The translations under genes and the position numbers were made by a program. A stretch of DNA of 63,353 bases, filler included, from Hausera hauseri (Eukaryota), in assembly GCA_046269625.1 (NCBI GenBank). It is 10 parts of 10 records of this genome, joined end to end, with 100 filler letters (N's around TTAATTAATTAA, not from the genome) between each part and the next. Parts side by side here need not be neighbours in the genome. Positions count along the whole stretch, not along the records: positions 14,504 to 22,641 come from JBJURY010753208.1; 9 more parts are not named here. One strand, given 5' to 3'. Below are positions 2,384 through 37,790 of this stretch, piece by piece (positions within the stretch are counted from its first letter, which is position 1; each line of letters starts with the position of its first letter). Under the pieces are notes generated by a model. The model saw nothing but the letters and a program-made list of their open reading frames with translations. It did no database searches and was not told the origin of the DNA.

Positions 2384-3351
2384 TCGGACCCCGATCCTTC
2401 TTATGTGGAAAACTCCACAAAGACCAGATCTGGTCGTAGTCCTGCCGACCCCACACCAACTACATCTCCAAATCTTCCTTGCACAGATTTTTCTCTTGAT
2501 AAATCAAATTTGAGCCGCATTTGGTTACAGTTCCATTTGCAATGGCTTAAAGCCAATCTTATCACAGACTCCTTTTTGCGGGCGAACAGTTTGCTGTTAT
2601 TACTTCCAGCTAACATCTAGCAGCAAATCAACAATCTTGCTGACATACTTTTTCAACTCCATATGATATGCTTTATGAATCAGTTCTGCACATCACCGAC
2701 CCTTTCATTGGCAGTATAATTCAAAAATACTTCAATGAGCATGCCAGCGGAAATCAAAAACCGTCGGATTTCCTTAAAACTGCAATGTCGCAATTGAGTT
2801 CCTTAGGCGTCACTTCTATAAACAATGCCGATCTTCTTCGTCGATATTTTCTTTCATTTTTACCAACCTCCATCAGGGCGCTACTCACTGTAGTAGATGA
2901 CTCTACTACACTTGAAAAGCTGGCCTTATTGACAGACAAAAGCTTTGACATTTTGCAGTCTATTAGTCCACAACCAGTAGCTAAAGCAACCGCTCACACA
3001 CCTTCACACACCGACAACACTCCATTTTCACAACAATTGAAATTGATGCAGCAACAGTTTGACGAGTTAAATCAGTCGATTCTAGCCATTACTACCCAAC
3101 TAAATAATCTTAATAGGCCTCGACGAAGCGAAACCAGACCTCTAAGGGAGAGAAGCACTTTCAGGCACTCTGCTCGATCCATTTCACCTGGTGGACGCAT
3201 TACTTGTTTTTATCACACGCGATTTCAAAGGGATGCTAGAAAGTGTTTTTTGGCTTGTCGTTTCTACAGCAAACGGTACGCTGTAGACAACCTCATTTGT
3301 ATCTATCACAATAAGTTTCAGTCACGGGCTAGATCATGTGTGCCTGTTTGA
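2384..3351 (+). pseudogene. gag: Gypsy Gag (capsid-like, with C-terminal CxYHxxFxxxARxC motifs)
   Basis: LPCTDF...IWLQF...LITD...LLLLPANI, then KPSDFL, LLRRYFLSFLPTSIRALL, TLEKLALLTDK, and twin CFYHTRFQRDARKC / CIYHNKFQSRARSC motifs. Confidence 0.75.
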
Positions 3352-4199
3352 AAATATTATATCCATAAGTCTCCTCGCTTTTCATCCTCCTATTCCTTTT
3401 CTCCAAAACCTTCAAAAAAGTAAAAGCGCCACCAGATTTTACGGCACATTCTGGTGCAGGCAATATCGCTCAATCTTCTGGCCGTTTCAACACCGCCTCT
3501 GCAGTCTTTCTGTTCAGAGATGCACTGTTATGCAGTGATACTTCACATATCGACTTTCTTATAGATTCAGGAGCTGCCTTTTCACTCCTTCCGTTGTCCT
3601 TCGTTCCTACATCGACTATGATTTCCTGTCCACCGTTTTTCATTGCCAGTATTCAACTGTTGCATGTTGCAGGACCACGGAATTGACTTTCACATTCGCA
3701 AACTTGCCAAATAAGTTTGTATGGAAGTTCCACGTGGCTAAAATTAAATCTCCCATAATAGGCTCAGGTTTTCTCTGCACAAGATTATTTAATCGATTGC
3801 AAATACAGCTATCTTTTAAGCAGGAACTCAATTGCGACTCCAAACATGTGTCTCGTAGACAACTTAGCGAGCAATTCACTGCACTCATCTATGAACCTGT
3901 TAAACGCTTCGTCATCTATAAAATCTTCAGATAAAGTCGGCAATATTTCAATTATGAGCGACAATCATAAATCCATTCTAAAACAAAAATCTAAATTAGG
4001 CGTCGACAGTAGTGATGCCAGTTGCTTTTCGTCAATCACTGGAGCTGTTCTCTCTAATGACATGCCTTATTCATTTTTATTTCTAGACTCCGATCTTAGA
4101 TCATACGTCATAACGTTTTGCTTTCGCAGAGTTTAAAGGGACGTCAACGTCAAGCCTCCATCCACAACTTATCATCACATAGTAACAGAGAATCAGAGG

Positions 4200-4984
4200 C
4201 CGATCAAACAAAAGGTCAGACCCTTGTCGCCACGAAGACGTAAATCTATGGAACAGGAGTTTAATGGATTGGAAAGGTTTGGCATCATTCGGAGATAGAA
4301 TTCGCCGTGGGCTTCTCCTCTTCATGTAGTGGTAAAGAAAGATGGTACCTATAGGCTATGTGGCGACTATCGTCAATTAAACAACCTAACCATTACCGAC
4401 GCCTATCCATTACCACTCATTAAAGATATTCTTCATAGCCTCAACAACACCAATACCTATTCTACCATTCATCTGCACAAAGCCTACCATCAAATTCCTG
4501 TTGCCCCTGATGACATTCCAAAAACTGCTGTCATCACACCATTTGGTCTTTATGAATACATCTTCATGCCTTTCGGCCTTCGTAGCGCATCTCAGACCTT
4601 TCAACGCCACATCGACACCGTTCTTTCTGGTCTTGATTTTGCTCATCCATACATAGATGACATATAGTCGCTTCTAGATCCATCAAACAACATCGTGAGC
4701 ACTTTAGGATCATTTTCCACAGATTGCATCAAAACAACGTGCGAGTTAATTTCGCCAAATGCAATTTCTTCCAAAAACATGTCAACTTCTTAGGCCACAT
4801 AATTACTCCTGAAGGGTATTCGCCCCAGCCTGATTGCTTACAACAATTAAAAAATGTGACGTTGCCAACTACTACTACCGATATGAGTTTTTTTGGGACA
4901 TTGCATTTTGTACACAAATACGTGTCTCACTGTTCCGAACTGAAGGCACTTTTCGCACATCTCTCATCTGGAAAGAAAAGATAA
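4200..4984 (+). pseudogene. pol: Gypsy reverse transcriptase (disrupted)
   Basis: SPWASPLHVVVKKDGTYRLCGDYRQLN, KTAVITPFGLYEYIFMPFGLRSASQTFQR, YIDDI, KCNFFQKHVNFLGHII. Confidence 0.95.
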
Positions 4985-5059
4985 TTAATCCATTGGACTT
5001 CCGATCTAGTAAACCAATTTGATCGCCTTCGTGAAGATCTGAAAACTGTTGAAATCTTA

Positions 5060-5476
5060 GCCTTTCCAAAACCAAACGCCGAACTAATATTGACTACCGA
5101 TGCCTCTACCAAAGTAACTGGTACGATATTACACCAAATATACAATTACGTCGATGAACCATTAGAATTCTATTCCCGAAAGCTTACGCAACCTGAAAGT
5201 CGATACTCAGCATTTGATCGTGAACTCTTGGCTGTAGTTCTAGCGGTAAATCATTTCAAGCACTTTCTTCTTTTACGTCAATTTACCATCCAAACCGACC
5301 ATAAGCCTCTACTTCACATAATGACTTTGAAACAGCCCTCACCCAGGCAAGAACGACAGATATCATATGTGTCGATGTTTAGTTTTTCCATGAAATATAT
5401 TTCAGGCACCGAAAATTTAATAGCGGATTTTCTTTCGCAGTTGGTTAACTCAATTACATATTCTGCAAGCTTTTAA
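5060..5476 (+). pseudogene. pol: Gypsy RNase H
   Basis: TTDAS, FYSRKLTQPESRYSAFDRELLAV, TDHKPL, GTENLIADFLS. Confidence 0.95.
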
Positions 5477-5619
5477 ATCTGTTGAAATCATCGAAGGCAT
5501 CGCTTATGACAATTCCAACTCGACGAAAAAAAAAATCATTTTTGCTCCATCGCTAAAAAACAGCTTTCAATCACTTTCATTCTCTTTATCATCCGCGTTC
5601 AAAAGTCATATTTAGTCTA

Positions 5620-6530
5620 CTGCAACGCCACGTTGTATGGCCAACTATGCGTACAGATATACAGATCTGGGTCAAAGGATGTGTTGCATGTCAACAATAC
5701 AAGGTTTATAAACACCTCAAACCACCACTCTACCACTTTCTTTGCACTTCTCGTTTTGAAACCGTGCATTTGTATCTTATGGGTCCTCTACCTGCCGATA
5801 ATAGTTATCAATATATCCTATCCATGATGGATCGCGCTTCTCGCTGGCCGGAAGCCGTTCTGCTTCGATCAACCAACACTGACTCAGTGGCTGATGAATT
5901 TATCAAGATATGGGTCAGCCGTTTTGGTTCACAACGTCACATCATAACGGACCAGGGTCTGCAATTTGAAGCTAATGTTCTCAAATCTCTTGTAAAACAC
6001 TTGGGTATAGCCCATCTCCGTACGACGCCGTACCATCCCGAAGCAAATGGTCTTCTCGAGAGATTTCATCGTACCATGAAGATTTTCTTAAAAATCCTGG
6101 CTAACAACAATCATAACTGGGCCTCAATTCTTCCTCTAGTCCTACTCGGTTGGCGCAACAATCCATCCACCACTACAGGCTGTGCTCCAGCTGAGGCTGT
6201 CTTTGGGACACCACTTCGTGCACTATTTGAGCTCTCCAATCTCGACGAAAGTCCATCAGATAAAGTTATTCGTGCGGCACAGTCCCACTTTGCTGATGTA
6301 AACTCGAATGCCTTCTGCCGTCTTATAAACAAAGACAAATCTTATTTCCCAGAGGACATATACTCAGCCAAGTTTGTATGGCTGAAGGATTCGTCACCTT
6401 CAGGTTTTCGGTTTCAGTACGTTGGACCTTACAAATTACTCAATCTTTCTTCGCACACTGCCACTATTTTACGCAAGGACCAACCCCATAATGTACACAT
6501 TTCTAATCTTAAGCCAGCCTTCTTCGATGA
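5620..6530 (+). pseudogene. pol: Gypsy integrase (within ORF 5647-6909, which ends in a Ser/Pro-rich tail)
   Basis: WVKGCVACQ zinc site, DRASRWPEA, IITDQGLQFE, TTPYHPEANGLLERFHR, GPY motif. Confidence 0.95.
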
Positions 6531-7073
6531 TGATGACCAGCATAACGGCATTGTTTCAAATCCCAACTTTAACTTCTATACCCTCAAGCCATCATTTAAT
6601 TTCCTTGATGATTTTAATCCTTTGCAGCCATCAATATCGCGTCACGATCAGTTCTCTTCACTTCCATCATCATACAGTGCTCCTTCACCACTTGCTTCTC
6701 CGTCATTGCCTGCACATCCACTATTCATTTCATCTTCATCGCACGATTTTCTGTTATTTTCAGTATCGTCTTCTTTGCGTGATCCATTTCCGTTTTCAGC
6801 GGATCATTTTCCGTCTTCTCCACTTTCACCTCTTTATAAAGCATCTTCCAGCACCAAAAAAATCCACAGTATCTCTCTCTCTCTCAAACGACTCCACAAG
6901 TACCAGTAAGATCTAACAGATCACGTCATGCGACGTTTAGTACTTACAGCAGGAGGAAGTTCATAGATGGAGTCCAACGTCTAACACGTACCAAAATCGA
7001 ATAGGTACAAGTTCTTCTTTTTCCTACTATAATCTCCACTTATTTCTTCTCTTCACAGTCTTTATCTCGCCAC

Positions 7074-14503: not shown

Positions 14504-14719
14504 ATTGAGGAAGTTTTTCCCTCGCGTTGGCGTAAATTATAACGCTTGTTTGACCGTATTTCTGTCTTGACAACTCTGTACTGACACAACTTCTTCCTTT
14601 CCATTTTTGATAATGTACACTGTGATTGGAGTGACTTTGGTAACTTCGTGTGGTCCTCTGACTATGCGAGTTCATTTTAATGAGGTGCCTTTCTTGGCTA
14701 CTGGGTAATGTACATAGAC

Positions 14720-15680
14720 CAAATTTCATTGTTCTATATCATGCGGTTTTGCCTTCTTATCGTATTGTTTTCTAAATTGCTCCTGATAATCTTTTGATAA
14801 TTTTTTGGAGATTTTCCAACACCTTCTCAATCGGTTTGTAACACGTCTGCGAAATTTTTTTCTAAATCTTCGAGGTTAACCGTATATGGCGTCATTCCTA
14901 AGTCCGCGAGTAACACGGCTTCCCGTCCAGACATCATACAGAATGGGGTGAATCCTGTCGCTAAGTGTGGCGCAGTATTAATTGCGAATTGGGTTCCTTC
15001 TAAAACTTCGTCCCAATCCTTTTGGTCCTTTGCTACTACTGTTAGTAATAGGCGTATGACAGTGGCATTCATTCGCTTGACCATTCTGTTGCACTGAGGA
15101 TGATACGCGGTAGTTGTTAGTCGTTCAATTTTGAATATCTTAATGATTTTCTCGAATAGTTCTCTGGTGAAATTTCTTTCTCGATCTGTGAGTATCTGAT
15201 CTTGGGGCCCATATCGGCAAGTAATCCTTCTTACTACGGCTTCTACTAAAATTTCTGCCTTTTGATCAATTAATGATATCAACTCGACGAAATGAGTTAG
15301 TCAATCAATACACGTTAAAATATATTTATTGTTCTTGTGAGTCGTAGGAAGAGGTCCTAAGATATCCATCGATATGGCTTGCATAGGCCTGTCGGTACAT
15401 GAATTGGTTTTAGTTCGTCCATATAATTTTTCGTCTTCTTTTGTTTAGTTGCACATACTTTGCAAGCATTTACCCAATTTTTCACATCAATATAGATACT
15501 AGGCCAGAAATATTTATTTATTATTCTTTCTAATGTTTTCTTCTAGAACATGTGTCCTGCCAAATATGAATCGTGTTCTGACATTAGTACTTCAGTTCGT
15601 AAACCTTTTGGAATAACTACAAGTTTCTTTCCTTTCCGTTCGTAATATAAAATATCTTCATTGCTCTTGTCATTTAAGAC
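14720..15680 (-). pseudogene. pol: Gypsy integrase (HHCC and DDE core)
   Basis: LAGH...YFWPSIYIDVKNWVNACKVC; ILTDRERNF; TTAYHPQCNRMVKRMN; FAINTAPH. Confidence 0.93.
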
Positions 15681-16325
15681 TCAATATTTATGTCCGTGTC
15701 TGTGTAAATGTTTCTTTAACTGTCGTCCTTTTGGTATGACATCTTTCTTAGCAAATTCTATAATCTGCTGGATGATCTTATCCTTTCTTTGTTTTGTTGA
15801 AATTTTAATGGCCTTATCTATCGTTAAAGCGCGTTGGCGGTCTATTATTTCCTCAAGTTGACTCTTCCTTATTACAGTGATTGCGCTTGTTTTCGTCTTT
15901 AATCTCGATATTGCATCTGCGTCTACATGTTTGTTTCCCGGCTTATATTGGAATTCAATATTATATCTCGATATCTCTTCGATCCATCTATTGAGTCTAC
16001 ATGTCGGATTATTTACTCGGCCCTTCAAGGTCGTAACGGCCTTGTGATCAGTGACGATTATGATTTTCTGCCAGTATACATAAACGTTGGAGTGGCGAAG
16101 AGCCTCTTTTACAGCTGGAGTTTCCAATTCGGTAACAGAATAGTTTTTCTCGGCCTTCTTCAAGGAACGTCCTCCATAAGCAATCGGGTGCTCTAATTCT
16201 TCATCTTCCTTTTTCTGTGCTAGTTCATAACCAATGCCTTCTTTACGGGCGTCTGTCTTGATTATAAAAGGTAAGTTAAAATCTGGATACCGTAAAACCG
16301 GTTCGCTTGTTAATATCTTTTTCAT
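15681..16325 (-). pseudogene. pol: Gypsy RNase H
   Basis: PVLRYPDFNLPFIIKTDA, AEKNYSVTELE, VTDHKA, HVDADAISR. Confidence 0.95.
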
Positions 16326-16345
16326 CTTATCAAAAGCTTTCTGTT

Positions 16346-17146
16346 CTACGTCCGTCTATTTCCATTTAATTCATTTTTTAAGTAGACGATATAAAGTGCG
16401 TTTATCTTCGAATTATCCGGCACATAGGTTGCGTAGTAACCGTATAACCATAGCCAGTGCCTTAATTCTTTTTGGTTTTGTGGTTCCATGCAATCTGATA
16501 TTTTATTTAATAACGATTTATCTGGTCTCGATGCTCCTTCTCCAACTATATGGCCAAGGTAGGACACAGCATTTTGAGCCCACTTGCATTACTTTGGATT
16601 TAATTTCAATCCAGCTTGTTCCAATCTCATCAGTGTGTGTTTGATATCCTTTAAGTGTTCCTCTTCGTTTTTTGACGCTGTCATTACGTCGTCCAAGTAC
16701 GCAAAAGCGTGATCCAGTAACATTAACATTTTATTCATCATCCTCGTAAATATGGCTGGTCCAGTAGTAATGCCAAACGGAATGACATTAAATTTATAAA
16801 CGCCATCGTGTGTTTTAAATGCTGTTTTATAGCGATCTTCGTCCTCAATCTCCACTTGCCAATATCCGGATTGTAAGTTCAGAGTGGTAAATCATTTTGC
16901 TCCTGAGAGTCGGTCTAAAGCTTTTTTTACTGACGGTAATGGGAAAGAATCTTTCATCATAAGATTATTTAGGGCTCTGTAATCGATACAAAATCGATGT
17001 TTTGTAGTACCTTTCTTTTTAACCATGAGGATTGGTGAATACCAAGATCTATAGCTGGGCCTAATTATATCGGCCTTAAGCATTCGTTCAACTTCCTTTG
17101 TTATCTCGGACCTTAGAGAATGTGGCGGAGGGTACCATTTTGGCAT
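16346..17146 (-). pseudogene. pol: Gypsy reverse transcriptase
   Basis: RFCIDYRALN, KTAFKTHDGVYKFNVIPFG, AYLDDV, SYLGHIV. Confidence 0.96.
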
Positions 17147-17539
17147 CTTCTGATCTTCAAGATCTATTTCCTCATTTGAACTCGGCTTTTTCTTGAATGG
17201 AATGGTTAGTTTTAACGCTTTCGCTCTACCGATATCTTTTTAGTCCTTAGCGATGATAGATTTATAACGGCACAACCATTCATAAAATCGACAATATGAT
17301 TCGGGGAAAAACTTAGTTTCGACATGCGGTGGAAATTCGGCGTACTTGTACGGTTTCTCTTTGATAGTTATCGACGATACTCTATACGTGTCTCCTAAAG
17401 TCGTATAAGCATGAAGTTTAACGGAAGTCTGCGCATTATCAGCTATTCTGATCGGCACTTGACCGGAGTGTACTCTTGTTAATACATTGCTGAGTAATAC
17501 ATTGTGGTCTAACGTATCTCTTGGTTCAAAATATACTGG

Positions 17540-18118
17540 TTAATTGTCATCTTGCTGTATCTGGGCATAAATTATTATTTCTGTTTTATGTGGAATATTT
17601 TCGTCAACTGGTATCCACACTTCTCCAAATTTTCTATCTTTGGCGTTTTTCACGCCTTTATTTGGTCTGATTTCGATTAACTTCCCTGTTTGTAAGTCAA
17701 TTTCTATATTTGGTAGTCTTTTCAGTAAATCACATCCTAAAACTACGTCGTCGGTTAATTGCTCTATAACTGCAAACTCGTGATGGAAAAACTGTCCAAC
17801 TATTTGAACTTCTGGGTTCCATTTAAACATTGGTTTTGGCATTTGACAAAAAGCTCCTGTACTTCCTGGATCTTTCGTAAACGGTGGGTACAATTGTCCT
17901 CTCAGGGTTTGAGGTATTAAATCATTTTTGATGTAAGACATCTCGGATCCTGTATCGATTAAGACGTAAACTTCCCAATCTTCGATAGTGATTTTGGCGG
18001 AAGGTCTTCCTTCTATCACTGTCCCGAAACAGGTCGATGTATCCTTTAAGCTTTTCAGCGCCGATATTTTATGTCCATTGATTCGGATTTCGGGTGACGA
18101 TACTATATTTTCCGACAA
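17540..18118 (-). pseudogene. pol: Retropepsin aspartic protease and linker
   Basis: VLIDTGSEMSYI catalytic motif; DDVVLGCDLL. Confidence 0.9.
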
Positions 18119-18699
18119 TTAACTTAGTTTTTCGTTTGGATATAATTCGTTGTTTTCTACGTGGAATTCTTCCGTTTCATGTGTACTAATTAACGGTTCT
18201 CTATTGTTAGTATATAATTTTAGTATTCTGGAAGGCTTTTAGTCGTTGGTTGTCCCAAACTGTTGATCTAGTTTCGATATTCTTAGGTTCTCTCGGTGAG
18301 TACAGCATTTTGAGGTCATCTGTGGATTGTCGGTAGCACATTTTCCGTAGAATTCCGTAACGTTTTGTTCCCTCATAAGGATCTTCTACATTAATTGTTC
18401 TTTTATATATTTCCGTCTGGTATGAGCTCATTGATCGTTTGTCACAATCCTCACAGAATGGAGCGGTAGGAGGTAACATGGGTAATAACACTTTAATGAT
18501 AGAGTATGTCTTGTATCGTCTTGTTCTTGAAAGTGCTTCTCCTCCATTAGGCTCGTAATCATCTGAATTATTTCTTCGCGTAATGGGTTTTGTAAATTTT
18601 TGCTTCCGTAGGTATATAGGCCTTCCTTTTCGTTTACGATTATGATAGCCGACATGGCGTTCTACGTCCGATTTCCACCTATTGTCTTCGTATGCTTTC

Positions 18700-20520
18700 A
18701 AGAATTTTCCAAAAGGCGTTATGATCGCAGTTAAGATTTTGCAAGAGACTCCGGTCAACGTAAATATTTCATACCCATTTATCACGGCTTAAATAACTGC
18801 GTTGATCATTTGTATCAGAAAATATATAGCTAAGAATCCGGATGCGGCTTGTCCAAATATCAAAAATCTTCCCCAAATTTCTGTGGTTACTGGCTGATAA
18901 TGATTTACGCCAAGTAAAGATTCCCATTTCGCCTAATATCGTGTATCATCTACTATAGAAGCCATAGCTCGATTTAACTCGTGTGTTCGTTGTCGTGGAA
19001 AGGCAAGGAATTGTCTAAAAGCCTCCATTTCCTTCGGCTTGTATATATCTTTTGATGAGGTGTCTTGAAATTTATCGTCTGTAATTCCTTTCGCAAGATT
19101 TGTTCCTGTCAATTTATTTAGAGCGGCAATAATACCTCTATTTGGCAAGCTGACCCAATCTGTTTCATTACGTCTAAACATAGGTTTTCCTAAGCTTGCC
19201 TTACAATTTTTAAGGATGGTCGGTTGGGTAGCGTTATTCAATAACCCTCTCGTCAGCGATGTAGCTAATCTCGGATTATTTTGGTAAATAACAGGAAGTT
19301 CCTGAATGCAACGTTTTCCTTCCACGTTGATGGGCACATCTCTCTTTTCACATTCATAAGTTAGCAATACTTCGCCTGTTACCCGACCGAAAATTCCTTC
19401 TCTCATAGGAATTATTGGTGAAGCCAACTCTGGTTTGGCGTATATGAGAGCCAATTATGTTCTCATAATTTTGGTATCTAATTTGCAGTCATTCATTATC
19501 ATTTTGTAATATAATTCCGTTATTCCGACTTGTCCTTTGTAGTAAAAGTAATCATTTCTATTCTTCAGGTAATCTTCGATGCGGACATCCTGTGTTTCTA
19601 GCTTATAAGTTTTCGCACTTATCGCCATCTCTGCGACGAAAAACGCCACATAGTTCGTAGCAAACATCACTACATCATAGCGGAAAATCATCTCTTTTTT
19701 AATAATTGTTAATCCATGCTGATCCGAGATTAATATAGTAGGTGTATAGTGTTCTGATACATCCTCACGTGTCTTCGAATTGGTTTCTGATTTGTCCACA
19801 TATCTCTTTCCTGTAGTCTCATTGAACTTTAGTTCTTTAATTTTAATAAAATTACAATTTCTTCCAGAGGAGGTTCCCATATTATAACGGAGTTCCTAAA
19901 AGCACAGGTTCCGTCTTGTAAATGACATTTTTGATTTTCTGTATATAGTTTGGTGACACTATGGAACATTACTTTCTGTGATCACATTTCCGATTCGTTA
20001 AAATCCACAACCACCACGTTTGATTCTAATCCTTTTCCGGTATCATATTCTGCTCCATTACAGTGTCCGCTATGCATATCTAATCTTCCGGCTACCACTT
20101 TGTATGTCCTGATTGTTTTTCCCGGTTGCATCTACAATTGCATACTGTCCCATTGTATTCTTCCCGTTTCTTTGGCTTGCTTGTAGCGTTGGCGTTCTAA
20201 ATTCATCGAAATTAGTGGAGTTGTTGGCTTGATTATAGAGGAATGTCCGTGTACTAATCCACAGTGAAAAATGTTTCGTGATCGTCTCAGCATGCATTCC
20301 ATCCCATCCAACGATATCTGTTTTTGTTGTTGGTATAAGAAGTAGTTTTTCTCCTTTGTCTCCAACTTGTGTTTTCTGGCATCTTCGCATGCTTCCAAAT
20401 CCATTAGGGAATATCTCTATCCTAATTTAAACTTATCGCAGTCGTAGATGGTTACAGCGCCTATGTGCTTTATTAGCATCATCAAGGTGAGTAAGCTAAT
20501 TAGCCAATTCGGTTCTATTT
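18700..20520 (-). pseudogene. env: Chuvirus-like (class III, gB-type) envelope glycoprotein with internal signal peptide and C-terminal TM segments
   Basis: NWLISLLTLMMLIKHIGA|VTIYDC..YSLMDLEAC..ECMLRRSRNIFHCGLVHGH; ELYYKMIMNDCKLD..GEVLLTYECEKRDV..CIQELPVIY; IYKPKEMEAFRQFLAFP; WGRFLIFGQAASGFLAIYFLIQ..INGYEIFTLTGVSCKILTAI. The motif series matches recalled chuviral G. Confidence 0.85.
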
Positions 20521-22641
20521 TCCGGCATCCAACGTCCGCCGCTGTCAAATTACGTAACATATCGTCGAATTTATTATTGTTTCGTTTGTCTTCTTCCTTG
20601 TCAAATAGTCTTGACCAATTTACTTCGCAGGGCAATCTTTTTGCTGCTTTTTGTGCTAAGCTTATAGCTCTATTGATTTCATTCTCTCGATTAGGATTTA
20701 TTTTGATGACTAAGTATAGTAGTATTTTCTTAATTCATCATTGGTGTTCTCTATCATATTCTTTTCGATTACCGATTTGTCGGTTAAGTTGCTTTTTGAT
20801 AGTTTAAAACGTGAACTTCTCATCATTTTGGCCGCATCAAAAATTATCTTTTCTTTATCGTCTAATACATCACCTCGAAGGCTTGAATAATTTACAATTC
20901 GTATCAGATTCTTCATTAGCTCGTTTATTTCTTCATTATCTGTGCTAAAGTTGGAATTGACATTTGTCTCAATTCTCTAATCAATTCTTCGTTGTAGTCT
21001 ACTTCTTCTCGCGTTTTCTTGCGCCTACCGATTTGACGTTTCGGCCTTGGCCCTTTGGTGGTCATTTCGCTCAATGGTACTAAATTTATATCATATTGTT
21101 CCTTATCTTCATCCGTTTGTAAATACTCGAAATACATTGCAGCATCTCGGACTCCCATAATTTGTCCTACGCATTGTTCCTCTTTAGCCTTACGTGTGGC
21201 TTCTTTTTTTGTCTGTTTGTTAGCTATTATTGCTGCTATCCGGTTTGTTTCGTCGGCGATAATCCCGACATCTATTAGCTGTTCTAGGTCGTCAAGTATT
21301 CTACCTCTAAAGTAAAATCTGTAATTTAGATCATTTGTTCCACCATTGTTTAACAACCATTCTTTTACATTTTTACATAGAAATATGTAGTCAACTCACA
21401 TTCTTTTTTATCCATCTACTCGGATGATATTATTACTTTCATCGCTACCTCAGGTTTAGTCCTTAAAATTTTGACGTATTTCGTTATCAACAGTTTCGGC
21501 ACCGTGCTATAAATTGTGTTCTCATTAGACAATTTAGTTAAAGTTGGAATAAGTCGTCTTAATTTATTTTCAGTAATATTTACATAAATTAGTTCGATTA
21601 AATCTTTTTCAGTTAGCGCTGAATCCAGGAGCATCTCCACATTGAACCTCCTGTTCTACGGGCACGTTTCTATTTCATTTAATTGCACTGGGGTAATAGG
21701 TTTCTCAGCACGTATCGCATCGAAGTATGCATCCCATTCGGGTTCGTTTTCAGCATCTGGAAGTCCGTAATCCACTAAGACAGTATTTATTCTTTGCACA
21801 TTTTCTCGAATTTGTTTCAGTCTGGGCTGTATTTCTTTCATCTGCGTAGTACGGAAACCTACTCCGTTTCCACAGGCATACTGAATCATTTTTAGTAATT
21901 CGTCTAATTTATTAGGGTCGATCAGTCCCTTCTGATGATAATCTGTCAATTCAAGAATCACATCCTTTTGCCATCTTTGTACAAATTCTCGCTTATTTTT
22001 GATTTCTGATTCTGTAAAAGCATATTTATTTCTGTAGACTTCGAACTCCTTTGTTAGTTCATCTAGACTCGTTGCTCTTTGTTTTGTTTTGATGCACGTT
22101 TCTTCAACTTGCTGTAATTTTGGCATCAGTTGTCTCATCCTCTCGTCATTAATTTCCGCCATTTCTACCAATAGGTAGGCTAACCCATACATGTCATTTA
22201 TAATTTTTGAGTCGTGATCTATCGCGCCTGACAATTTCTTTACAAAATTAGATTCCTGAAAACTAATATGCTGATCATTTCTTATTTTTATCAATTCGGT
22301 ATGAAAGTTCTGATTTGATACAGCCATCTATTCTTGGTGTTTATGTAAAAATTTTATCGTGTCCGTTAAGGTGGCTCGGTGTTCCGGACAAATGTCCAGG
22401 TTTTCGATATCTTGGACAGAGATCTCATCGATCGGTTTATCTGTCAAATATTGAACTTCTTCTAATCGGACATTTTTCAATCGCGGATAAAAATTGCAAG
22501 TCATATTTCGCTTTTCGGTAAATTTTGTCTCTTTGATCATTTCATAGATCTCTTCCAGTATCGTCGCTTCTTGTTTCTTTTTCATAAAATTAAGTCGTCA
22601 TAATGCCTCAAATCGCGTGCGGATGTCTATCGCTGCTAGTA
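20520..22641 (-). pseudogene. Accessory polyprotein region of unknown function (SAM-like, helical and ubiquitin-like segments)
   Basis: Homologous to 47790-48905 (+) and 56918-57963 (-); EISVQDIENLDICPEHRATLTDTIKFL; YRFYFRGRILDDLEQLIDVGI. Confidence 0.7.
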
Positions 22642-24796: not shown

Positions 24797-26560
24797 ATGA
24801 CAGTTCAAAATTCAATGTTGGAGCAAATAAATTTTAGCAATCCACACATGATCGAGGACTGGTTTGACAGATTCAATTTATTCAAGACGAATAAAAAATA
24901 AAATGCCACTGCATTTCTCTTCACAATGGCTGAAAAAGAAGCATTCAGCCTGGTAAAAAATTGGCGATATCCGAAGAAACCACAGGAACTGAACACAAAT
25001 GAAATTAAAAAGCTGCTTAATAAGCATGTCAAACCAAAGAACTTTGAAATTACCAAGCGAGCAATTCTGCAAAATCAATCGTCACGGTAAGCAATCAATT
25101 TAAGAATTTTTGCTACAGATTCAAAAACAAGTCAGTTTTTGCAACTTGAGAGACAAATTCAACATTCAGTTGAGGGATAAAATTGTGGTAGGAATCAATC
25201 ACTCACAGATCCCGGGTAAATTGTTACTAGATAGGAGTTTGGCATATCAGAGGGCAAAGGAAATGTGAAATTTCGATGAATGTCGAGACAGCCTTATCAA
25301 AATCCGATATAAATTCGACTGGAATTAATGAAAATGATGTACTGTACAACAAAAATACCAAATTCAATCTTCCACAGAAAGATTGCGTTTCTTGTGGTAA
25401 AAATCATTTACGGAAAGATTGTCCGTACAGAAATGCAGTATTTCAATTGCAGCAATAGTGACCATATCAAAGCCGTATGTCTTAGCAAAAAAAAAACAAC
25501 ATGCAAAACGAGCGATAGAGAAAGGGATATTAAAAAAGTCGCAGAACCAAATTCAAATAGTCTCTGAACCAAACTTGGAAATATTGAAAATTAGAACGAT
25601 TTCCAACAGAAAAAATCATTTAACAGAAATATCAGTTGGATAATGGGAAGACAATGTCATTGATACAGGACACATGTAGCATTCATTCATTAATTGGTTT
25701 CAATGCCGTTAGCTCGTCATTTGTTGGTTTCAACACAGACTTTTATTAACACATTCTTTGGATTATATCAAGATATCCATTTCTTACTCTTGGTTTGAAA
25801 GCCAGTCCAGGTATTTTTCAAGAAGTGATCAATAATATTCTTATGGAATTACCCGAAGTAGCATCTTATCAAGACGATTTATTGATATGTTCACACAATA
25901 ATACGGATCATGAGAAATATCTAGAAAAGGTCCTTCAGAAATTAATGCAGCACAACGTGAAAATATATCTGGAAAAATCTATCTTCATGCTAGATGAAAT
26001 ACCATTTCTGGGTTGGGTTAAAAGATGGATATTTTCCGAATACGAGAGCCTATTTTAGAAGCTCCAAATCCAGTCAATAATGCGTAATTACATTCACTCT
26101 TGGACAGTTTGCAATATTATTTTCGTTTCGTTCCTAATTTTGCAAATATGACGAAAAATCTATTTAGCTTGTTTAGCCAAGAGGAATTTTTATGGTCCAA
26201 AGAGCATACCACATATTTAGAAAGCGCTAAAAAGGCTACTTCTGAGTCAAAATTGTTATTTCCATTCTCATCCAAAGCCCAAAGTACCGAATTAATCACA
26301 AATGAAAGCAAATATGCAATAGGTGGAATTCTTGAACAGTTTGGCCAGCCTACTATTTGTATAATCACTCAAATTGAGCGCTGCTGACAAAGGTTATTCT
26401 CAACTTCGGAAAGAGATATAGCAATTTATCGGTGTGTAAAAAGACTACTAATTTTTTCCGATCATAAGCTTTTTGAATACATTGCGAGTCATAATCAAAC
26501 TATAGCTAAAGGTACGTCGCATATGCTGTAAAGCTTCGCAGTTTTTTATCAAGCTTTAAT
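24797..26560 (+). mobile_element. Heavily decayed, internally deleted Ty3/gypsy element (gag with CCHC, partial RT and RNase H)
   Basis: CVSCGKNHLRKDCPYRNA..CSNSDHIKAVC double knuckle; KASPGIFQEVINNILMELPEVASYQDDLLI; YFRFVPNFA; LITNESKYAIGGIL. Confidence 0.8.
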
Positions 26561-27512: not shown

Positions 27513-28630
27513 CTACAACAGTTGTTTGTCGTCAAACGGATACAGTGCCTTCTTTTTTAAACTGATGGTCATCAACTGATGATTTTTGGTCCCAATTCTT
27601 TCCTGTTGAACCATTGTGCCACAACCATTTTCATATGCCTGTACATAGCTATCATCTTGCAAATTTGTCTGCTTGAGATTGATGCTCTTACATTTCATGA
27701 TTGGTTTACTTTGAGTTTTCGGCGAATACGATTTTGGCCATAAGAAAATCCTCTCTTGATACTGATCACAACCCTTACTTTCGTCTTTAAATTTCCCTAT
27801 TACATCTGAGAATCGAGATGAGTACAGTGGATCACTCAAATCATAGTTCGAAGTGTCCAGCTGCTGATTTGCAATCATTTCCGCTAAAAGTTGGGATCGT
27901 AAGTCAACACCATAGTACCAGAGAAAAAAGCTGTCCGTGCCATCGCCAGTGATATTTATCTCACAGTTAAACTGTTGCATATAAGTTTCCAACTCGATGT
28001 ATTTCAATTCATACATCCGCAACTTAGAAAGATCGAGAACAGCCTGACCGATGTATGAGGTCCTATCTAATGTAACCATATCTTTATCAAGGAGAACGGC
28101 AACCAGATCATCAATTATAATAATACTCTCCTAAAACTGCACCTTGCTAGTATATGTAATAAGCTTCTTAGCATTATTACAGTCTCAAGTTGGACATTTT
28201 GAGAAGATTCTTAACTGTCTTACCGTATATGCTATTGTTTTTCAGCTTAAAGAAATCTTTCTGGAAAGGATTATTTGTCGTTGCCCTTTTAAATCGATAT
28301 AATCCTTAAACGCAACCCTGGTCATATTCAACAACTCGATGAACTCTTTCAACAACGGCACCTAACTGAACGAAAAACTGCAAAAGCCGATAGTGAATGA
28401 CATAGTTGGTTTCCTTAACTCTTGGCCCAGGAGGACATTGATTAATCGGAGCTAAAGACAGTTTGTCAGACGGAATACTTATATCAACCTCATACACTAT
28501 GCTTCTTTTTCCCCTAACAGTGTCAAGATAAGGCAATTGCTCAATAAGACTGTTTAAAGTATCATCATTGTAAATCCAAATCATTTCAAATGGCAGAGGT
28601 TGTGATAAAGCCCAACCGTACAAATTATTT
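27513..28630 (-). pseudogene. pPolB: Polinton/Maverick protein-primed family B DNA polymerase, C-terminal half
   Basis: NNLYGWALSQPLP, YVIHYRLLQF, KDFFKLKNNSIYGKTVKN, YIGQAVLDLSKLRMY, GDGTDSF, IGKFKDE, KKALYPFDDK. Confidence 0.9.
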
Positions 28631-28808
28631 AGAGCAGAAAAGTCATATTACTGTTATTAATTTAGTCGCAGTTAGACTTGAAGTCAATCGAGTTTGTTGG
28701 AGAAATCGATATTGCGCAGGATAACGCATACAGTACCTGCACGCATTAAATTTGAGCACAAACCTTCAAGTGTAAACTATTGTTATAGTCGGGAAAAGTT
28801 AGGGCCCA

Positions 28809-30080: not shown

Positions 30081-32223
30081 CTCAGTGTTTTCCCCCCGAT
30101 TTGTGGCTGTAAGGCTCTTGCTAGTTATTTGGAAAGCAGGGAGGATTACCAAAATTACTGTATTACCTCTAAATATTATTTTTCTGCCCCTAAAACTAAC
30201 ATTAAACATGCACTTTAACATAAAACACTTTGTAGAACGGTGCTTTATGAAGTTCAGTCCATTTATTCTATCAGTTGACCGGCAGTTCTGCCTCATCCAA
30301 TATGGCGGCCGCTCCGACGTACCGCTGCAGCGGGTCAGCCCACTCAACGAGGTGTCCACTAAAACTGCCTCACCAGTTCTCTGTGATCACCCTGGCAGAT
30401 GACAATAGCCAATCAGTGATGGAGAAAGGTCAGAGGAGCTTTGCTATGAAATAATGATGAATGATTGTTTGAAATGTGTTTAATAGGTTAACTCAAAAAC
30501 CGCCGATCTGACTCCAAATCTGCCCAAATTATCTCCTCCCGGCCAAAGCTATTTTTACCCGCAAAATAGAGAATGAAAACCGCCCAATCTGGCAACACTG
30601 TTTGAGCAGCTACTGGCGTAACATGACACAAAAATCGACTTTTCTTTCTTTGCCCGGTGTCTTTCGGTAATTATTGAGCAGTAACGAACCGATTACTTAA
30701 CTGATTACTGATTTTTTTCACAGACTATGCATTTTATTAAAGCATTTTTTTTTCCATTTTCACTGATATTTATATGGTGCATAAAAAGGAAGCAAAGCAT
30801 TTGGTTAATCAAGAACAAGATTGAAATAACCATACGTAATGGGAAAATTAATAAAATAATGTATAGATCCGTAGAGAAATAAAAATAGATAATACTCAAC
30901 TTGTACAGAAAAAAAACTTGTCTGGTTTCACTTTCTCTTTCTGTGAGTACAAAGGTCCTTTTTTCCTAAGTCAAAACAGAAAGTATTCACACCTCAAAGG
31001 TCAATTATTGTAGGAATAATTATTAGTTATGTACTGTACAGATGTATCTTCTTGAGATACCAGCCCACAATTTGGAACTTTTGAAAGTGGCTTTAATACA
31101 CAGTATAATGACTCCTTGCACACTGTCAAAGCTGCTACAACAAAAGCTGAAGATACCATGGTCAAGTTATGACTCCAATCCAAATTAAAATTTCTGGTAG
31201 TACTTTGAAAAAAGAACCTGAGAGTGAAGATGTCCCACATTTATTCTGGCTGAAATAATTGTACCAGCAAAGATGCTGTTGGAATATTAACCCAAATGTC
31301 TCATCCACATATGGGTTAGCAAAAATTTGTTTTTCATTCTTGTACTTGTCTCACTTGCAAAACAAGTTAAAATCATATAAACTATCACAGAATAACTTCA
31401 TAACCTTTGCTGTAAATCCTTACACCTTATACCCTCTTGAGATATGGTATTTATCTGTTTGTACTTTATGCTTCATTCTATGAAGTGTTCAGGCTTGCTG
31501 CGTTTTTAAAGTCTCCATCTGTCATCCTCACCTCTACACATTTTGATTAATAATGAGTACATCATACAAAATCAGAATTAAGAACATTATGTTATGATTA
31601 AAACATTCCTAACAATCACTTATATTTTTGTTGCTGTGAGTAATAATTAGACCTCATCAGCTTCATTTTGTGTAAAGTGAGTCACTGTGTGCTAAAGGTG
31701 AAGAGAAGCTGCAAAACAGGAGCTTCTTTAGTCACTATGAGACACCATATTAAATCACAAATCTGTCAGATCAATGTAATTTTATTGTTTCATTAACTGG
31801 CGATGTAAATCTGCAACAGATGATATTTAAACCATAGCTGGGGTTTCAGCATACCTGCTGACTGCTCAGCCTCTCCCAGCTTAGTTATTATCAAAGTACG
31901 ATCATAGTTAATAGTATAAAAATAACATATTATTTTATGGTTATATTTTATTACATGAAATACAGTTTTTAGTTTTAGCGTCTTGAAAAGAATCATTTAT
32001 AGAATGAATAGGAAGTTTCGTGTTTGCGGGATTTCCCCGCATTCCTTTCCTTGCAGACTGTCTGGAGACGCATGAACGTCATGACCAATGAGAAGCTCTA
32101 GAATTTATTTTGAGGGGATTTCCCTTTCTACTTTGAAAATCGTAGTAGTTTTGAAAGCAGTCTGAAAGTAATGTGTGCTAATTCCCGTAGCTATTCCAGT
32201 TTGTACTTTATCGTACAAATTCA

Positions 32224-33906
32224 ATGATGAATCGAGCTTTATCAAAAGAAGAAATTTATGATATGTTACTGTCTTCTTCCGATGATGAAGAAATTGTTTC
32301 GGAATTAGAAGATCACATTTCTGAAGCTTCGGAATTATCTTCGGCTGACGATGAAACTGAAAATGAATTTACAGACTGCACATATTTATCAAAGGATAAG
32401 TTGATTCAGTACAGAAGTGACCCTGTTACGCAAACAGGTAAACGGACATCAAAAGATATTTTAAACCTTACACCAGGACCTACTAGATACGCTACTTCAA
32501 GAATTCATGACGAACTATCTGCTTTTCGAATGTTTATTACAGAAGACATTGAGAAAATTGTTATCATGAACTCAAACATCGAAGGAGCACGTGTTTTTGG
32601 GGATAAGTGGAAAGTAATTGACAGTGTTGAATTTAGTGCCTATATAGGTTTGCTGTTACTTGCTGGTGTATTCAAATCCTGCAATGAATGTACAGAAAGT
32701 TTGTGGGATGCAGAGAAAGGCAGACCTATTTTCAGGGCAACTATGAGTTTGCAAAGATTCTTTCATATATCAAGAGTTTTGAGATTTGATGATCGAGAAA
32801 AGCGTTCCTGTAGGAGACAAAAGGATAAGTTTGCAGCCATTCGCGACTTATGGGATATGTGGGTGGAGATATTGCCAAAACTTTTTAACCCCAGTGCATA
32901 TGTGACAGTTGATGAACAGTTGGTTTCATTCAGAGGAAACTGTCCATTCCGGCAATACATGCCTAAGAAACCCACAAAATATGGAATAAAATTTTGGATT
33001 CTGTGTGACTATGAAACCAGTTATGTGTGGAACATTCAACCTTATCTTGGAAAGCCAATAAACCAGCCACGTGAAAAAGATCAGGGACTTAGGGTTGTTC
33101 TTGATTTGTCTTATGGTCTGAAAGGACATAATATAACGTGTGACAACTTTTTTTCTTCATATAAACTTGGTCAGATGCTACTCAAAAGAAATTTAACTAT
33201 GGTTGGAACTATGCGAAGAAACAAACCTTCTATTCCCCCTATATTGTTACAAACTAAAAACAAGGAAGTTTATGCATCAATATTTGCTTTCACGAATGAC
33301 ACTATGCTTGTCTCATACATACCAAAAAGAAATAAATGTATTATTGTTCAAAGCACATTACACTCTGAAAAAAAAGTTGATACATCAGAATCTAAAAAAC
33401 CTCAAGCTATCCTTGATTATAATTCTACGAAAGGTGCTGTAGACACCTTAGATAAAATGATTTCATGCTACACCTGTAGAAGGAAAACTAAAAGGTGGCC
33501 AGTCGTTGTATTTTGAAATGGTCTTGATATTTCAGCGGTGAATGCGTACATACTGTTCTTGGCAGCAAATCCTGATTGGAAAGTAAAATCAAAGCGAAGA
33601 CGACAACTTTTTATTGAATCTTTAGGCATGGGATTAGTACAAGACCATATTTGTAGAAGAGACATTCTCCCACGACAAGAAGCTGCAGCTGAATTAGTGA
33701 AAAATGTGCAGTGTCAATCGGAAGACGATGCAAATTCTATTCCCGAAACAGCGGGCTCAGCAAGCACAAGACGAAAAAGAGGTCGCTGTTATCTTTGTAA
33801 ATCAGACAATAAATTTCAAAATGTATGCATAAAGTGTGGTAAATTTGTATGTAAGACACACTTCAATCAAGTGTGTACAAAATGCACCACTGCAAGTGCT
33901 CAGTGA
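32224..33906 (+). pseudogene. piggyBac (PGBD4-like) DDD transposase with one in-frame TGA at 33514-33516
   Basis: VTVDEQLVSFRGNCPFRQYMPKKPTKYGIK, ITCDNFFSS, YNSTKGAVDTLD, RWPVVVF*NGLDISAVNAYIL, C-terminal Cys-rich RGRCYLC..CIKCGKFVCKTH..CTKC. Confidence 0.95.
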
Positions 33907-34583: not shown

Positions 34584-35680
34584 TACCTCCAGTCGCAGGT
34601 TTCCCTGCTGAGATAGTTGAGTCTGTTCAATGTCATGATCCGGAGCCAGGACAAAGGTGAAAAATGGGTAGGTGGACTTAAACAAATCCATCGATGTGCC
34701 ATTGTTGACATTTTTGTTCAATAAACCCATGTTGCTCACGATATATTGCATATATGTGCAAACGTAATCGCCGGTCTCTAAATCCTGCTTGTATTTCTTA
34801 ACAAAATCCGCATTCTTAACCAAACTGATGTAATTCATATTGCTATGGGTAAACGTTTCCGAATCGGTGGTATAACTGCCCGTTTGTTGAGCAGTCGTTT
34901 GAAATGCAACGAGCACAATTTCGGCAATCGCATGTCGCCAAACAATGCGTCTTTGTAAAACGTTGTCGAACCTTTGAGTATGGTGTAAAACAGGAGTTAT
35001 GTGCGTTGTATCGGGTAACAGGCATTTTGTGTTTCCAAGCCCAATTGATGTCCCATGAGCACATATGGTTCTACCTTTACACGATGTACGTATAATCATG
35101 CCTCGGTAATTTTCAGTGGGGGTTTGAGATTTTCAACGGCGGTTTTCAAGCAGAAGTTATTGTCGCTGCGCTTGAGCCGAATGATGGCTTTAACACCGGG
35201 TAGTAAGTATTTCGGTTGATCGAAAAAGTCAAAACATAGCGGTCAACATGTGGTATGCGCTTTTGATTCTGCCACCCATGCCTGACCGTTTGCTGCAGTG
35301 ACGTCATATCCGATAGTTTTCGTAAAATGAGTCGTTTTCATGTCTGCACTATAATTCAGAGCCGTTTCAATGAGTGCTTTGATATTGTATAGACTGGTGT
35401 TGCCTTCAGTTTTGACGCTGTTTAGAGTCAGTGAAGCCTCCTGGAACATTGTGAGGAAAAGGTAATTGGCCGGTGTGACAGTGTCTGTTGCAGCGAAAAC
35501 CGTTGATGTATCCTTTCTAACAATGGGTAGCGTGTCGTTCAAATCGAGATATTCATTGTCCGATGGCATAATGTTAAATTGAATGTCAGTGGTATCTTCT
35601 GTTGAAACCGAATCAACGGAGTAGATTTCTTCAAATGCTGCAGTCAATAACAACATGTGGTGCGGCTTTGTCAAATACAC
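34584..35680 (-). pseudogene. Double jelly-roll major capsid protein (hexon-like), 3' cut by contig end
   Basis: IQFNIMPSDNEYLDLNDT, LIETALNYS, PLCFDFFDQPKYLLPGV..RL.RS, FFTFVLAPD..GNLRLEV. Confidence 0.85.
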
Positions 35681-35716
35681 ATAATTCAGATTTTACAGAT
35701 GCCATTTGTCTGTCAA

Positions 35717-36075
35717 TCAATCGAAAATCATACGACGACGACGTTTGTTTATAGTTGAAAAGCTAACTGATTTACCACGTTTTCTCAAGCCACTAACAGC
35801 GAATTGTTTTTCGACTGATTCAACGACTCCCGGTGCAGCGCTTTTTATTTCTGTCAAGGCGTGTTCCATCAATGATGGTAAAATCGATTTGTTTTCATAT
35901 AGCACGGCCTGTGCTGTTTTTCTACCACGGCTCAAATACGCTTCAACACCGGAAACGCTAAACGTGCTAATGCATGCTACCGTCTAGAGCCATACTGTTT
36001 ACCAATGAAATATGGCAGCTCACCGCCCTGCTGAGGTTTATTATAAATGGAAACTGTGGATTGCTCAGTAATCAT
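35717..36075 (-). pseudogene. Polinton core/structural protein (QQGG motif, basic C-terminus)
   Basis: IYNKPQQGGELPYFIGKQYG..LARLAFPVLKR, ending KRRRRMIFD, immediately upstream of MCP. Confidence 0.6.
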
Positions 36076-36299
36076 ATGAAATTTCTGGACCATTCATCTA
36101 ATATATAATGATTGTTGCAATGATCTCAAACAGCAACAAGAAACAGGAAGAATTTAAAAGTCTCTAAAATTATTGAATTTATAAAAGTTCATAAACTGCG
36201 CACACACTACCATGCTTTTTCAAACAACAAAGGAAATGTCCATATAATTTTGTTTCTTCCTATTGGGTGAATGTGGACACCACAGAAACGATTTAAGAA

Positions 36300-37376
36300 T
36301 CAGTTATGTTGGTTTCGACGCAAATGAAGAGTTAGACTGATTATGGTATCGTACGGAAATTCAATAAGGTAACCGGCGTCACATCGGATATTCACTTCAA
36401 CATTGTTTATAGATGTAGATGCCACAGGTAGATACATTGGATTATTGAGCTTGACAGTGACATTGTCGCCAGCAGTACACTTACTGCTTTCCGGAGAAAT
36501 TGTACGGAGTAGCGGTACACGTACTCCACTGACCTAAAACGGTTCGGTGACGTTCACGTAAATGTACATTTGACTTAGTCAAGTTTTCAGATTGTGTTTA
36601 AGTGTAGCAACATGTGCCGTCGTCTTCGTATTCGATGCTACAAACCGCTGTTTTTCCAAACACAATACCATAGTCAAAGCTTTGCCCAATGAAATGTCGA
36701 CAATATCCTTAGCCAATTCAAATTTAATGTTCTCATTTGCATTAGACTCGAAAAGTTTAAATGTCTCATTGTATTTTTGATTCGAAGAAAAGTGTTGACA
36801 GAGATGTGCTACAGATTCGCAATAGACATTGTCTCTAATCGATACATATAACGTTGACACCCTTTGAGCTGTATAGGTAAATTTCATCGTTGTCTGGTAA
36901 TTTACAGGACTTAATCTGGCAGCCATTGCATATTCACTTTTAATATTTTTACCTTTGTACTCCATATTTTTGAATCCAAATTTCTGTGCCATATCAGAGG
37001 TCTCAAAGGTGACAGTAAATTCAAAATCTGCCATAAAATATAAGTTTTTATCTAAAATAATAACACCGATCTTGCCGCATAAACCGAAATTTGTACTGGT
37101 CGTGCAAATGGCCGATTCTCCAACTATTATTTTATTGTCAGTAAGTGTCAGAGGACAATAATGTGCTTTGATTTCAGTAAGAGTCTTGTTGTGCGTTATT
37201 TTCATACTACCTTTCAATGTCACCGGTGCGTAGGGAAAGTTAAATTCCGTCAGTGCAACATCCCATTTTCCAGATAAATCCAAAGGATTGTTCCAATCTA
37301 CAACGTATTTACTGGCTGAATTGTTCAGATGAGTCGTCGTACAACTGTTGCGCGGCAACACCATGTAAATGCTCAT
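36300..37376 (-). pseudogene. Minor capsid protein (penton), long form
   Basis: IYMVLPRNS..NNSASKY..PLDLSGKWDVALTEFNFP; after a disruption, MYIYVNVTEP..VPLLRTI..NPMYLPV..LTLHLRR. Confidence 0.85.
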
Positions 37377-37420
37377 GATCTCGATGATGATGATGATGAT
37401 GGTGATGACGCAGTTTGTTT

Positions 37421-37790
37421 ATTATCGACGACGGAAATGTAGTATCAAACGTGTCTAAGCTCCAAACAGAAATTTAATGGGTTTCCAAAATTCGTCTACT
37501 ATATACACGGAAATACTGTGCACAAAATTGTGAGACAACGATAAATACATGGCCGGATGATATTTACATGAGCAGTTTCGCCCTGTGTTTTGTACGTGTC
37601 TCAATCCAGTCCATGTAAAAACCAATAATTGTTTGCGGTCACCGCCAAAATATACGGGTTCGGTTAGATCCGTCACCGACTCTGTTTGACAGTTCGTGCC
37701 AGTTTGTCGACGCCAGTATATCTGACGGGATGACGCGTATCTAACCACACGTCACCTATTGTTGTTGTCGATGGTGTTGGTTTTGCTTGC
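37421..37790 (-). pseudogene. Second, short penton-like ORF
   Basis: VTDLTEPVYFGGDRKQLL..YHPAMYLSLSHNFVHSISVYIVDEFWKPIKF..LILHFRR. Confidence 0.65.

Follow-up and report, generated by a model that had tools for sequence, protein, structure and literature searches.

The window analysed here, a stretch of 63,353 nucleotides, consists of ten contigs of Hausera hauseri with N spacers between them. The third and ninth contigs carry two decayed retroelements, copies C and I, which share 68-72% DNA identity. In both copies a Monjiviricetes fusion glycoprotein (PF24664) is followed in Pfam searches by an aspartic protease, RNase H and integrase, and reverse transcriptase (RT) sits between protease and RNase H, as located by tblastn with the related protein P0002 and, in copy C, by its YLDD motif. 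The Pol order of copy C, protease-RT-RNase H-integrase (Pfam gag-asp_proteas, RT_RNaseH, rve), is that of Ty3/gypsy (Metaviridae-like) elements. The composite gene order, pieced together from copies C and I and contig H, is Gag-X-Env-linker-protease-RT-RNase H-integrase (Table 1). An Env between gag and pol is a feature of GAG-ENV-POL errantiviruses with an HSV/gB-type Env and is present here. Stops and frame breaks are numerous in both copies, and neither holds an intact, multicopy open reading frame. Copies C and I are relics of GAG-ENV-POL elements and not intact members. A repeat scan of the window found no LTR pair, the contigs stopping inside the elements, and the 3' end of copy I has no purine run of at least 11.

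Table 1. Retroelement features of the window, in window coordinates.
Feature	Position	Strand	Remarks
Copy C	14504-22641	minus	decayed retroelement, from JBJURY010753208.1
Protease, RT, RNase H, integrase, copy C	14504-18020	minus	decayed; domains other than RT by Pfam, RT by its YLDD motif and by tblastn with P0002
Protease DTG motif, copy C	17945-17962	minus	
Env tail / pre-protease linker, copy C	18020-18690	minus	frame break between 18231 and 18208; stop at 18119-18121
LYPNEKL, ALIX-type LYPx3L, copy C	18125-18145	minus	about 60 codons before protease DTG
PTAP (in LPPTAP), TSG101-type, copy C	18459-18470	minus	inside conserved 44-residue block 18354-18485
Predicted membrane anchor, copy C	18792-18866	minus	behind it a weaker segment, probably at the membrane surface (18690-18773), and basic residues (18597-18644)
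Env, copy C	18867-20509	minus	predicted chuvirus-like gB-type class III ectodomain, PF24664; stops and frame breaks
Internal signal-like segment of Env, copy C	20456-20509	minus	
ORF X, copy C	20510-22641	minus	between Gag and Env; no Pfam hit; matches contig H at 76% in DNA over 1168 nt
Contig H, 5' part of a third relative	45034-48907	plus	Gag, then ORF X
ORF X, contig H	46130-48907	plus	
Copy I	49783-57963	minus	decayed retroelement
Second membrane-protein region, copy I	49990-51212	minus	after integrase; broken; signal-like segment 51147-51212; hydrophobic segment starting at 50055
Protease, RT, RNase H, integrase, copy I	51213-54770	minus	decayed
Degenerate protease motif, copy I	54681-54698	minus	
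LYPIEKL, copy I	54828-54848	minus	about 50 codons before degenerate protease motif
Linker frame breaks, copy I	between 55064 and 55023; between 54979 and 54944	minus	
PSAP (in LPPSAP), copy I	55169-55180	minus	equivalent block 55064-55195
Signal-like segment, Env ectodomain and anchor remnant, copy I	55196-56899	minus	
ORF X, copy I	56900-57963	minus	

Two further regions belong to the element. ORF X, about 1,300 residues long as judged by the overlap of contig H with the two copies, continues the frame of the Gag zinc knuckle up to the Env signal; it gave no Pfam hit, and tblastn with nine relatives did not match it. In copy I and in the intact relatives P0002 (2257-2627), P0005 (2486-2855) and P0016 (2780-3243), the frame runs on past the integrase into a second predicted type I membrane protein. 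Its layout is a signal-like segment, about 250-400 residues and a hydrophobic span. The region has no Pfam hit in the three relatives, and tblastn found no match to the copy I region. It could be an accessory or attachment protein.

The window holds further elements and fragments. Fragments resembling Maverick/Polinton or adintovirus genes were recognised by eye from translations at 27513-28647, 34584-40416, 41091-43592 and 58064-63353; they include DNA polymerase B-like, ATPase-like, capsid-like and dUTPase-like pieces, and those scanned had no Pfam hit. A 94-nt inverted repeat (36191-36284 and 40395-40488) lies in contig F, and contig G carries the same 77 nt at both ends (40589-40665 and 44805-44881), which may reflect an assembly overlap or a circular contig. 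An uninterrupted 348-codon stretch on the plus strand (304-1350) encodes thioredoxin-like domains, which we take to be of the UGGT type, and is followed by an ordinary envelope-less gypsy element (2644-6909, plus). A further degenerate RT/RNase H fragment (25783-26510, plus) lies in contig D, and a piggyBac-type transposase (PF13843) with one in-frame stop lies at 32191-33903 (plus).

The glycoprotein was modelled from the C-terminal part of Env, with a mean pLDDT of 68.8 and a pTM of 0.43. The best match of the model in the PDB is herpes gB (E=4e-4, with a low TM-score of about 0.2), and the best matches in BFVD are chu-like glycoproteins (E=2e-15). When solved structures were searched by sequence, the only matches were weak ones to gB (best E=0.01). 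By profile match and predicted model, Env is a chuvirus-like, gB-type class III glycoprotein of the PF24664 family. Past residue 400 of the model, in the tail, pLDDT falls below 50, and the modelled part of the linker is likely disordered.

It is this linker, between the membrane anchor and the protease, that carries the motifs of interest. The initial annotation placed PTAP and LYPNEKL in copy C and PSAP and LYPIEKL in copy I, and each was found at its assigned place on the minus strand, the two pairs standing at equivalent, aligned positions. All four match the P[T/S]AP or (L)YPXnL consensus of ESCRT late domains. Over the whole window, all six frames together contain four P[T/S]AP and three LYPxxxL motifs. 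A PTAP in ORF X of copy I (57448) and an FYPRL in copy C (22492) have no counterpart in other copies and are chance motifs. Overlooked by the initial annotation, the two motifs of a pair fall in different reading frames within each copy, with an offset that differs between the copies. Since both the offsets and the break positions differ, a shared programmed frameshift between the motifs was rejected. The frame breaks lie at non-matching places, and each copy is open where the other is broken, a pattern more readily explained by one long frame falling into decay than by a programmed frameshift. The C/I lineage would have had a single continuous frame. Word-based searches, run with the Env fragment against long proteins and with the tail alone, found no third close copy of the PTAP block, and a search with a 38-sequence profile recovered only one of its own members.

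The two copies had been read as keeping their motifs while the flanks diverged. The comparison does not bear this out for PTAP/PSAP. The 44 residues from LPMLPP onwards, including EDPYEGTKxYG, are identical at 30 of 44 positions (68%); elsewhere the copies agree at 33/50 positions of the protease core (66%), at 91/108 of RT and at 107/135 where the Env ectodomain ends. As the block is as identical as the protease core, PTAP/PSAP is not distinct from its downstream flank. The upstream flank of copy I is deleted rather than diverged: a net loss of about 318 nt (at 55196-55226, minus), a multiple of three directly before the PSAP block, removed most of the membrane anchor and left a remnant with a stop. 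The claim holds better for the LYP motif, where the surrounding stretch is more variable (13/27 identical). By a hand estimate, the chance of retention is about 0.3 for the three PTAP positions in a 68% block and about 0.05 for the four of LYPxxxL, whose block is 48% identical. At synonymous sites C and I approach saturation (pS 0.62-0.97 in six of seven blocks), so that both are old lineages whose protein identity reflects past selection; the two motifs are nevertheless kept. Within the block, EDPYEGTKxYG (18354-18386 and 55064-55096, both minus) is better conserved between the copies than the PTAP surroundings. It is absent from the 114 relative tails among the matches listed and may be a lineage-specific motif. 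By themselves copies C and I prove little, and the relatives carry the argument.

Relatives were collected with phmmer, using the C-terminal part of the copy C Env as query. The search returned 325 proteins at E<=0.001, and the best 150 were analysed, among which the closest relative is 31% identical. A located anchor block and a post-anchor tail of at least 25 residues allowed 114 of the 150 to be retained, 14 with a protease motif behind the tail and 100 without; the 36 left out comprise nine in which the anchor was not matched, 19 that matched it weakly or in part and eight with tails shorter than 25 residues. Stand-alone tails were limited to 150 residues, and the set does not separate viruses from retroelements. 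The top matches are polyproteins in which Env is followed in frame by a protease, the arrangement of the 14 usable relatives among the matches listed. P0002, P0005, P0016 and P0019 continue through RT and integrase, and a zinc knuckle lies upstream of Env in P0002, P0009, P0010, P0011 and P0019. Two or three tandem aspartic-protease domains follow Env in P0003, P0004, P0005, P0006, P0010 and P0011. In a midpoint-rooted FastTree topology of 104 sequences (103 of the 114 relatives plus the window copy), read by its branching order, the window Env clusters with the Env-protease polyproteins.

The tails of these relatives are mutually unalignable (1 of 6441 pairs at E<1e-3 among the 114 listed), and they are strongly enriched in late-domain motifs when compared with residue shuffles and with ectodomain stretches of the same length. 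[LIMVF]YP occurs in 57 of the 114 listed tails, against 4.5 in shuffles and 4 in ectodomain stretches; the longer [LIMVF]YPx1-3[LI] occurs in 40, against 1.2 in shuffles. P[T/S]AP is present in 15 (0.8 in shuffles, 0 in ectodomain stretches), and the counts of its 11 anagrams in the same listed tails range from 0 to 4. The enrichment depends on spacing. In the 114 listed tails phiYPx[LIV] reaches 39 against 0.8 expected and phiYPxxx[LI] 8 against 0.5, and the intermediate phiYPxx[LI] (2 against 0.5) is not significant. YPxL and YPxxxL are the two ALIX modes; EIAV p9 has the spacing of one residue and HIV p6 that of three. Leu is the most frequent residue both before the pair and at Y+3 in the 75 YP pairs of the listed tails, and the LYPx3L of the window is a minority form, found without a hydrophobic residue at Y+3 in only five of the 114. 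When the listed set is thinned to less than 33% ectodomain identity, phiYP persists in 14.5 of 27.7 tails (1.2 expected) and PTAP in 4.3 (0.2 expected). In 19 of the 22 listed tails that have both, [T/S]AP lies upstream of phiYP, often by 3-10 residues. Among the 14 listed polyproteins, phiYP is found in 10 linkers and is concentrated there, with 10 occurrences in 1,477 linker residues against 13 in 20,832 residues outside; YP is absent altogether from the linkers of P0007 and P0041. PPxY was rejected as a family feature, being present in 7 of the 114 listed tails against 10 ectodomain stretches, and phiFP, phiWP, phiHP and phiLP are not enriched in that set.

On the tree the phiYP label is clustered (25 changes against 35 when shuffled), so that the tail counts are not independent gains, and P[T/S]AP is scattered (12 changes against 14). 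The ALIX-type motif appears to be a family trait, and the TSG101-type motif appears to come and go. Enrichment of both types in related tails is stronger evidence than the two-copy flank argument of the initial annotation. Conservation above background holds for the YP type across relatives and for P[T/S]AP across all listed tails; for PTAP it fails in the comparison of the two copies with the adjoining flank, and in the Env-protease linkers.

This enrichment bears on the view that the motifs are chance matches in the proline-rich linkers of two related, decayed copies. In favour of this view, the copies number only two, PTAP is matched in conservation by its flank, and unconserved motifs occur elsewhere in the elements. 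When the residues of the copy C linker were shuffled 100,000 times, PTAP arose in 0.19% of shuffles, the loose [LIMVF]YPx1-3[LI] in 5.7% and both in 0.008%, and across the family the enrichment is 12- to 19-fold over shuffles. We regard coincidence as the least probable of the explanations weighed here. The motifs on the Env tail are a real and probably functional feature.

What function they serve is a separate question. A tyrosine-based endocytosis or sorting signal (YxxΦ, AP-2 type) is common in viral glycoprotein tails, and YPx[LIMFV], found in 53 of the 114 listed tails, fits YxxΦ. In the same listed tails proline-free YxxΦ (Y[^P]x-phi) is at chance level (31 against 31.6), as are dileucine motifs (7 against 7.0), and generic sorting by either signal was rejected. 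The motifs of the window, moreover, carry Glu at Y+3 and do not fit YxxΦ, which makes an AP-2 signal highly improbable.

The Tyr-Pro pair might instead mark where the protease is cleaved off the Env tail, PTAP being incidental to a proline-rich block of other function. Retroviral proteases classically cut at aromatic-Pro pairs. In 12 of the 14 listed polyproteins a YP precedes the catalytic Asp by 29-91 residues. P[T/S]AP occurs in only one of the 14 linkers, contrary to the expectation that it is conserved between Env and protease, and in the window it is no more conserved than the adjoining EDPYEGTKxYG. A cleavage site does not explain why phiYP is equally common where no protease follows (47 of 100 listed tails, and 35 of 65 full-length stand-alone glycoproteins), why Phe-Pro and Leu-Pro, likewise cut by such proteases, are not enriched, or why the YP-protease distance varies threefold. 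We judge cleavage improbable as the sole role. It may coexist with an ESCRT role, cleavage destroying the ALIX site on maturation.

An ESCRT role requires that the linker face the cytosol. On a Hessa-type scale, the first hydrophobic window after the ectodomain has a median of 1.4 kcal/mol and the second 5.3 kcal/mol, the second being at or below 2 in only 3 of the 114 listed relatives. Lys and Arg near the anchor are sparse in relatives (0-2 in the next 15 residues), and the positive-inside signal is weak. A single predicted membrane span, together with protease, RT and integrase in frame behind it in the relatives, makes a cytosolic linker the simple reading. The linker topology assumed in the initial annotation agrees with this: by the hydrophobicity scale the linker follows one predicted span and is in frame with Pol in intact relatives. 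Copy I, for its part, is without most of its membrane anchor.

The proposal that late domains are located off Gag is also supported. Gag was seen in contig H alone, which is tied to copy C by the DNA identity of ORF X; it has a zf-CCHC match (E=1e-7, about 46029-46080) and a Retrotrans_gag match (E=0.007) below the cut-off of that profile. Neither P[T/S]AP, YPxL nor PPxY occurs in any plus frame of Gag and ORF X in contig H. In the N-terminal parts of ten relatives, several of which look truncated, P[T/S]AP and PPxY are each found in 0 of 10 and phiYPx1-3phi in 1 of 10. The capsid-like region near the N terminus of Gag would leave little room for a matrix domain.

Taken together, the motif enrichment in the tails, the cytosolic reading of the linker and the motif-free Gag make ESCRT recruitment by the Env tail likely. 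Gene order, fold class, motif enrichment and motif spacing are computed results; we infer a continuous frame in the C/I lineage, topology, ALIX/TSG101 binding and budding. Our preferred reading, to which we give a probability of roughly 0.55, is release of enveloped particles by an Env tail that recruits ALIX and, in the window element, TSG101 as well, in place of Gag late domains and matrix. The element would be an envelope-bearing Ty3/gypsy retrotransposon whose product is one Gag-X-Env-Pol polyprotein. An internal signal would direct the gB-type ectodomain to the lumen, and a single span would return the chain, so that linker, protease, RT and integrase are on the cytosolic side. The probably disordered linker would then serve as the Env cytoplasmic tail, bearing an old ALIX-type LYPxnL that is shared across the family of glycoproteins, to which this lineage would add a TSG101-type P[T/S]AP. 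These motifs may draw ESCRT to a membrane patch that gathers Env and capsid, where ESCRT would sever the neck of an enveloped particle that leaves from the cell surface or enters a multivesicular body. With a Gag seemingly devoid of a matrix domain and late domains, the Env tail would substitute for both.

The main competing explanation keeps the adaptors and drops the particle. The motifs would bind ALIX or HD-PTP, and TSG101, but deliver Env to multivesicular bodies, either for turnover or for release of the exosome type, with no scission of a capsid-containing particle. The enrichment and spacing data fit this equally well, and half of the listed relatives do without the motif, phiYP being missing from 57 of the 114 tails. 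YPX3L mediates ALIX-dependent lysosomal sorting in some host membrane proteins such as PAR1. Against it, PTAP beside YPxL is the layout of viral late domains in the HIV p6 and MLV examples of the available part of PMC8402826, and no other obvious ESCRT handle is present in the contig H Gag or in the ten N-terminal parts examined, several of which look truncated. We consider sorting without scission unlikely, though it is the most serious competitor to particle release by the Env tail.

Particle release by the Env tail can be extended. The whole chuvirus-like class III family, across gypsy and BEL/Pao elements and negative-strand RNA viruses of invertebrates, might bud through late domains of the glycoprotein tail. 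Gag-Env-Pol would be a self-contained polyprotein that anchors capsid and enzymes at the membrane and recruits ESCRT, and on maturation its own protease may remove the ALIX site at Tyr-Pro. We put this joint extension forward tentatively, as possible but falling short of an even chance. To our knowledge, chuviruses have no recognised matrix protein. Should glycoproteins of genuine chu-like viruses be among the stand-alone ones, this motif could account for the budding of those viruses too. The Env-tail late domain also offers a precise, peptide-level hypothesis for the exit of envelope-bearing invertebrate retrotransposons, and it is an independent line of evidence for selection of these fusogens to serve extracellular particles. 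Late motifs on the Env tail of two decayed elements and of many distant relatives suggest an unreported budding route.

Late domains and GAG-ENV-POL elements are each known, and we did not find their pairing across this glycoprotein family in print; in a search of the openly available literature, no published report of late domains in chu-like or errantivirus glycoprotein tails was found. GAG-ENV-POL Ty3/gypsy errantiviruses with HSV/gB-type Env have been described from Nematoda, Bryozoa and Platyhelminthes (Chary and Hayashi, PMC13524379), and the Gag-Env-Pol order with a gB-type Env is already published there. As far as the available text shows, they resemble the window element in this order, in a chuvirus-related gB-type Env and in protease-RT-RNase H-integrase. 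The window element differs in its long ORF X between Gag and Env and its second membrane-protein region after the integrase, neither of which is found in the available description; the window copies are, in addition, decayed and show no LTR pair. The terms 'late domain', 'ESCRT' and 'budding' do not occur in the main text of that paper, whose available part describes the transmission mechanism of most such envelope-bearing elements as elusive.

Several reports, each taken from the part of its text that was available, touch on late domains without providing a precedent for Env tails: late domains were proposed on ORF I and III and not on G (PMC6394706), Oropouche glycoproteins were described as having none (PMC9888203), and Cer1 offers no such case (PMC10309623). 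P(T/S)AP pairs with TSG101 and YPXnL with ALIX, and retroviral Gag late domains include PTAP and YPXnL in HIV-1 p6, YPDL in EIAV p9 and PSAP/LYPAL in MLV (PMC8402826, available part). The window element shares with these the motif classes, PTAP before YPXnL, both ALIX spacings and a probably disordered region just upstream of the protease. It differs from them in that its motifs, candidates for late domains, follow the Env membrane anchor rather than lying in Gag. Hartmanivirus GP2 and hantavirus Gn resemble the window element in that ESCRT access through the glycoprotein tail was proposed for viruses lacking a matrix protein. In the available part of that report (PMC6261641) the motif is of the ALG-2 type (P-Y/F-P-H-Y-P), the proposal is speculation and the glycoprotein is unrelated, whereas the present enrichment is of canonical ALIX/TSG101 motifs and extends over a class III family. 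In an engineered spike, an ESCRT- and ALIX-binding region in the tail can drive the formation of enveloped particles; that system is, in the available text, artificial, uses another motif and has no capsid or Pol (PMC10121106). A further related system is the family of chuvirus-like/Monjiviricetes fusion glycoproteins (PF24664), to which the window Env belongs and whose stand-alone members bear the same tail motifs. The stand-alone glycoproteins end past the tail, whereas the tail of the window element runs on into the protease.
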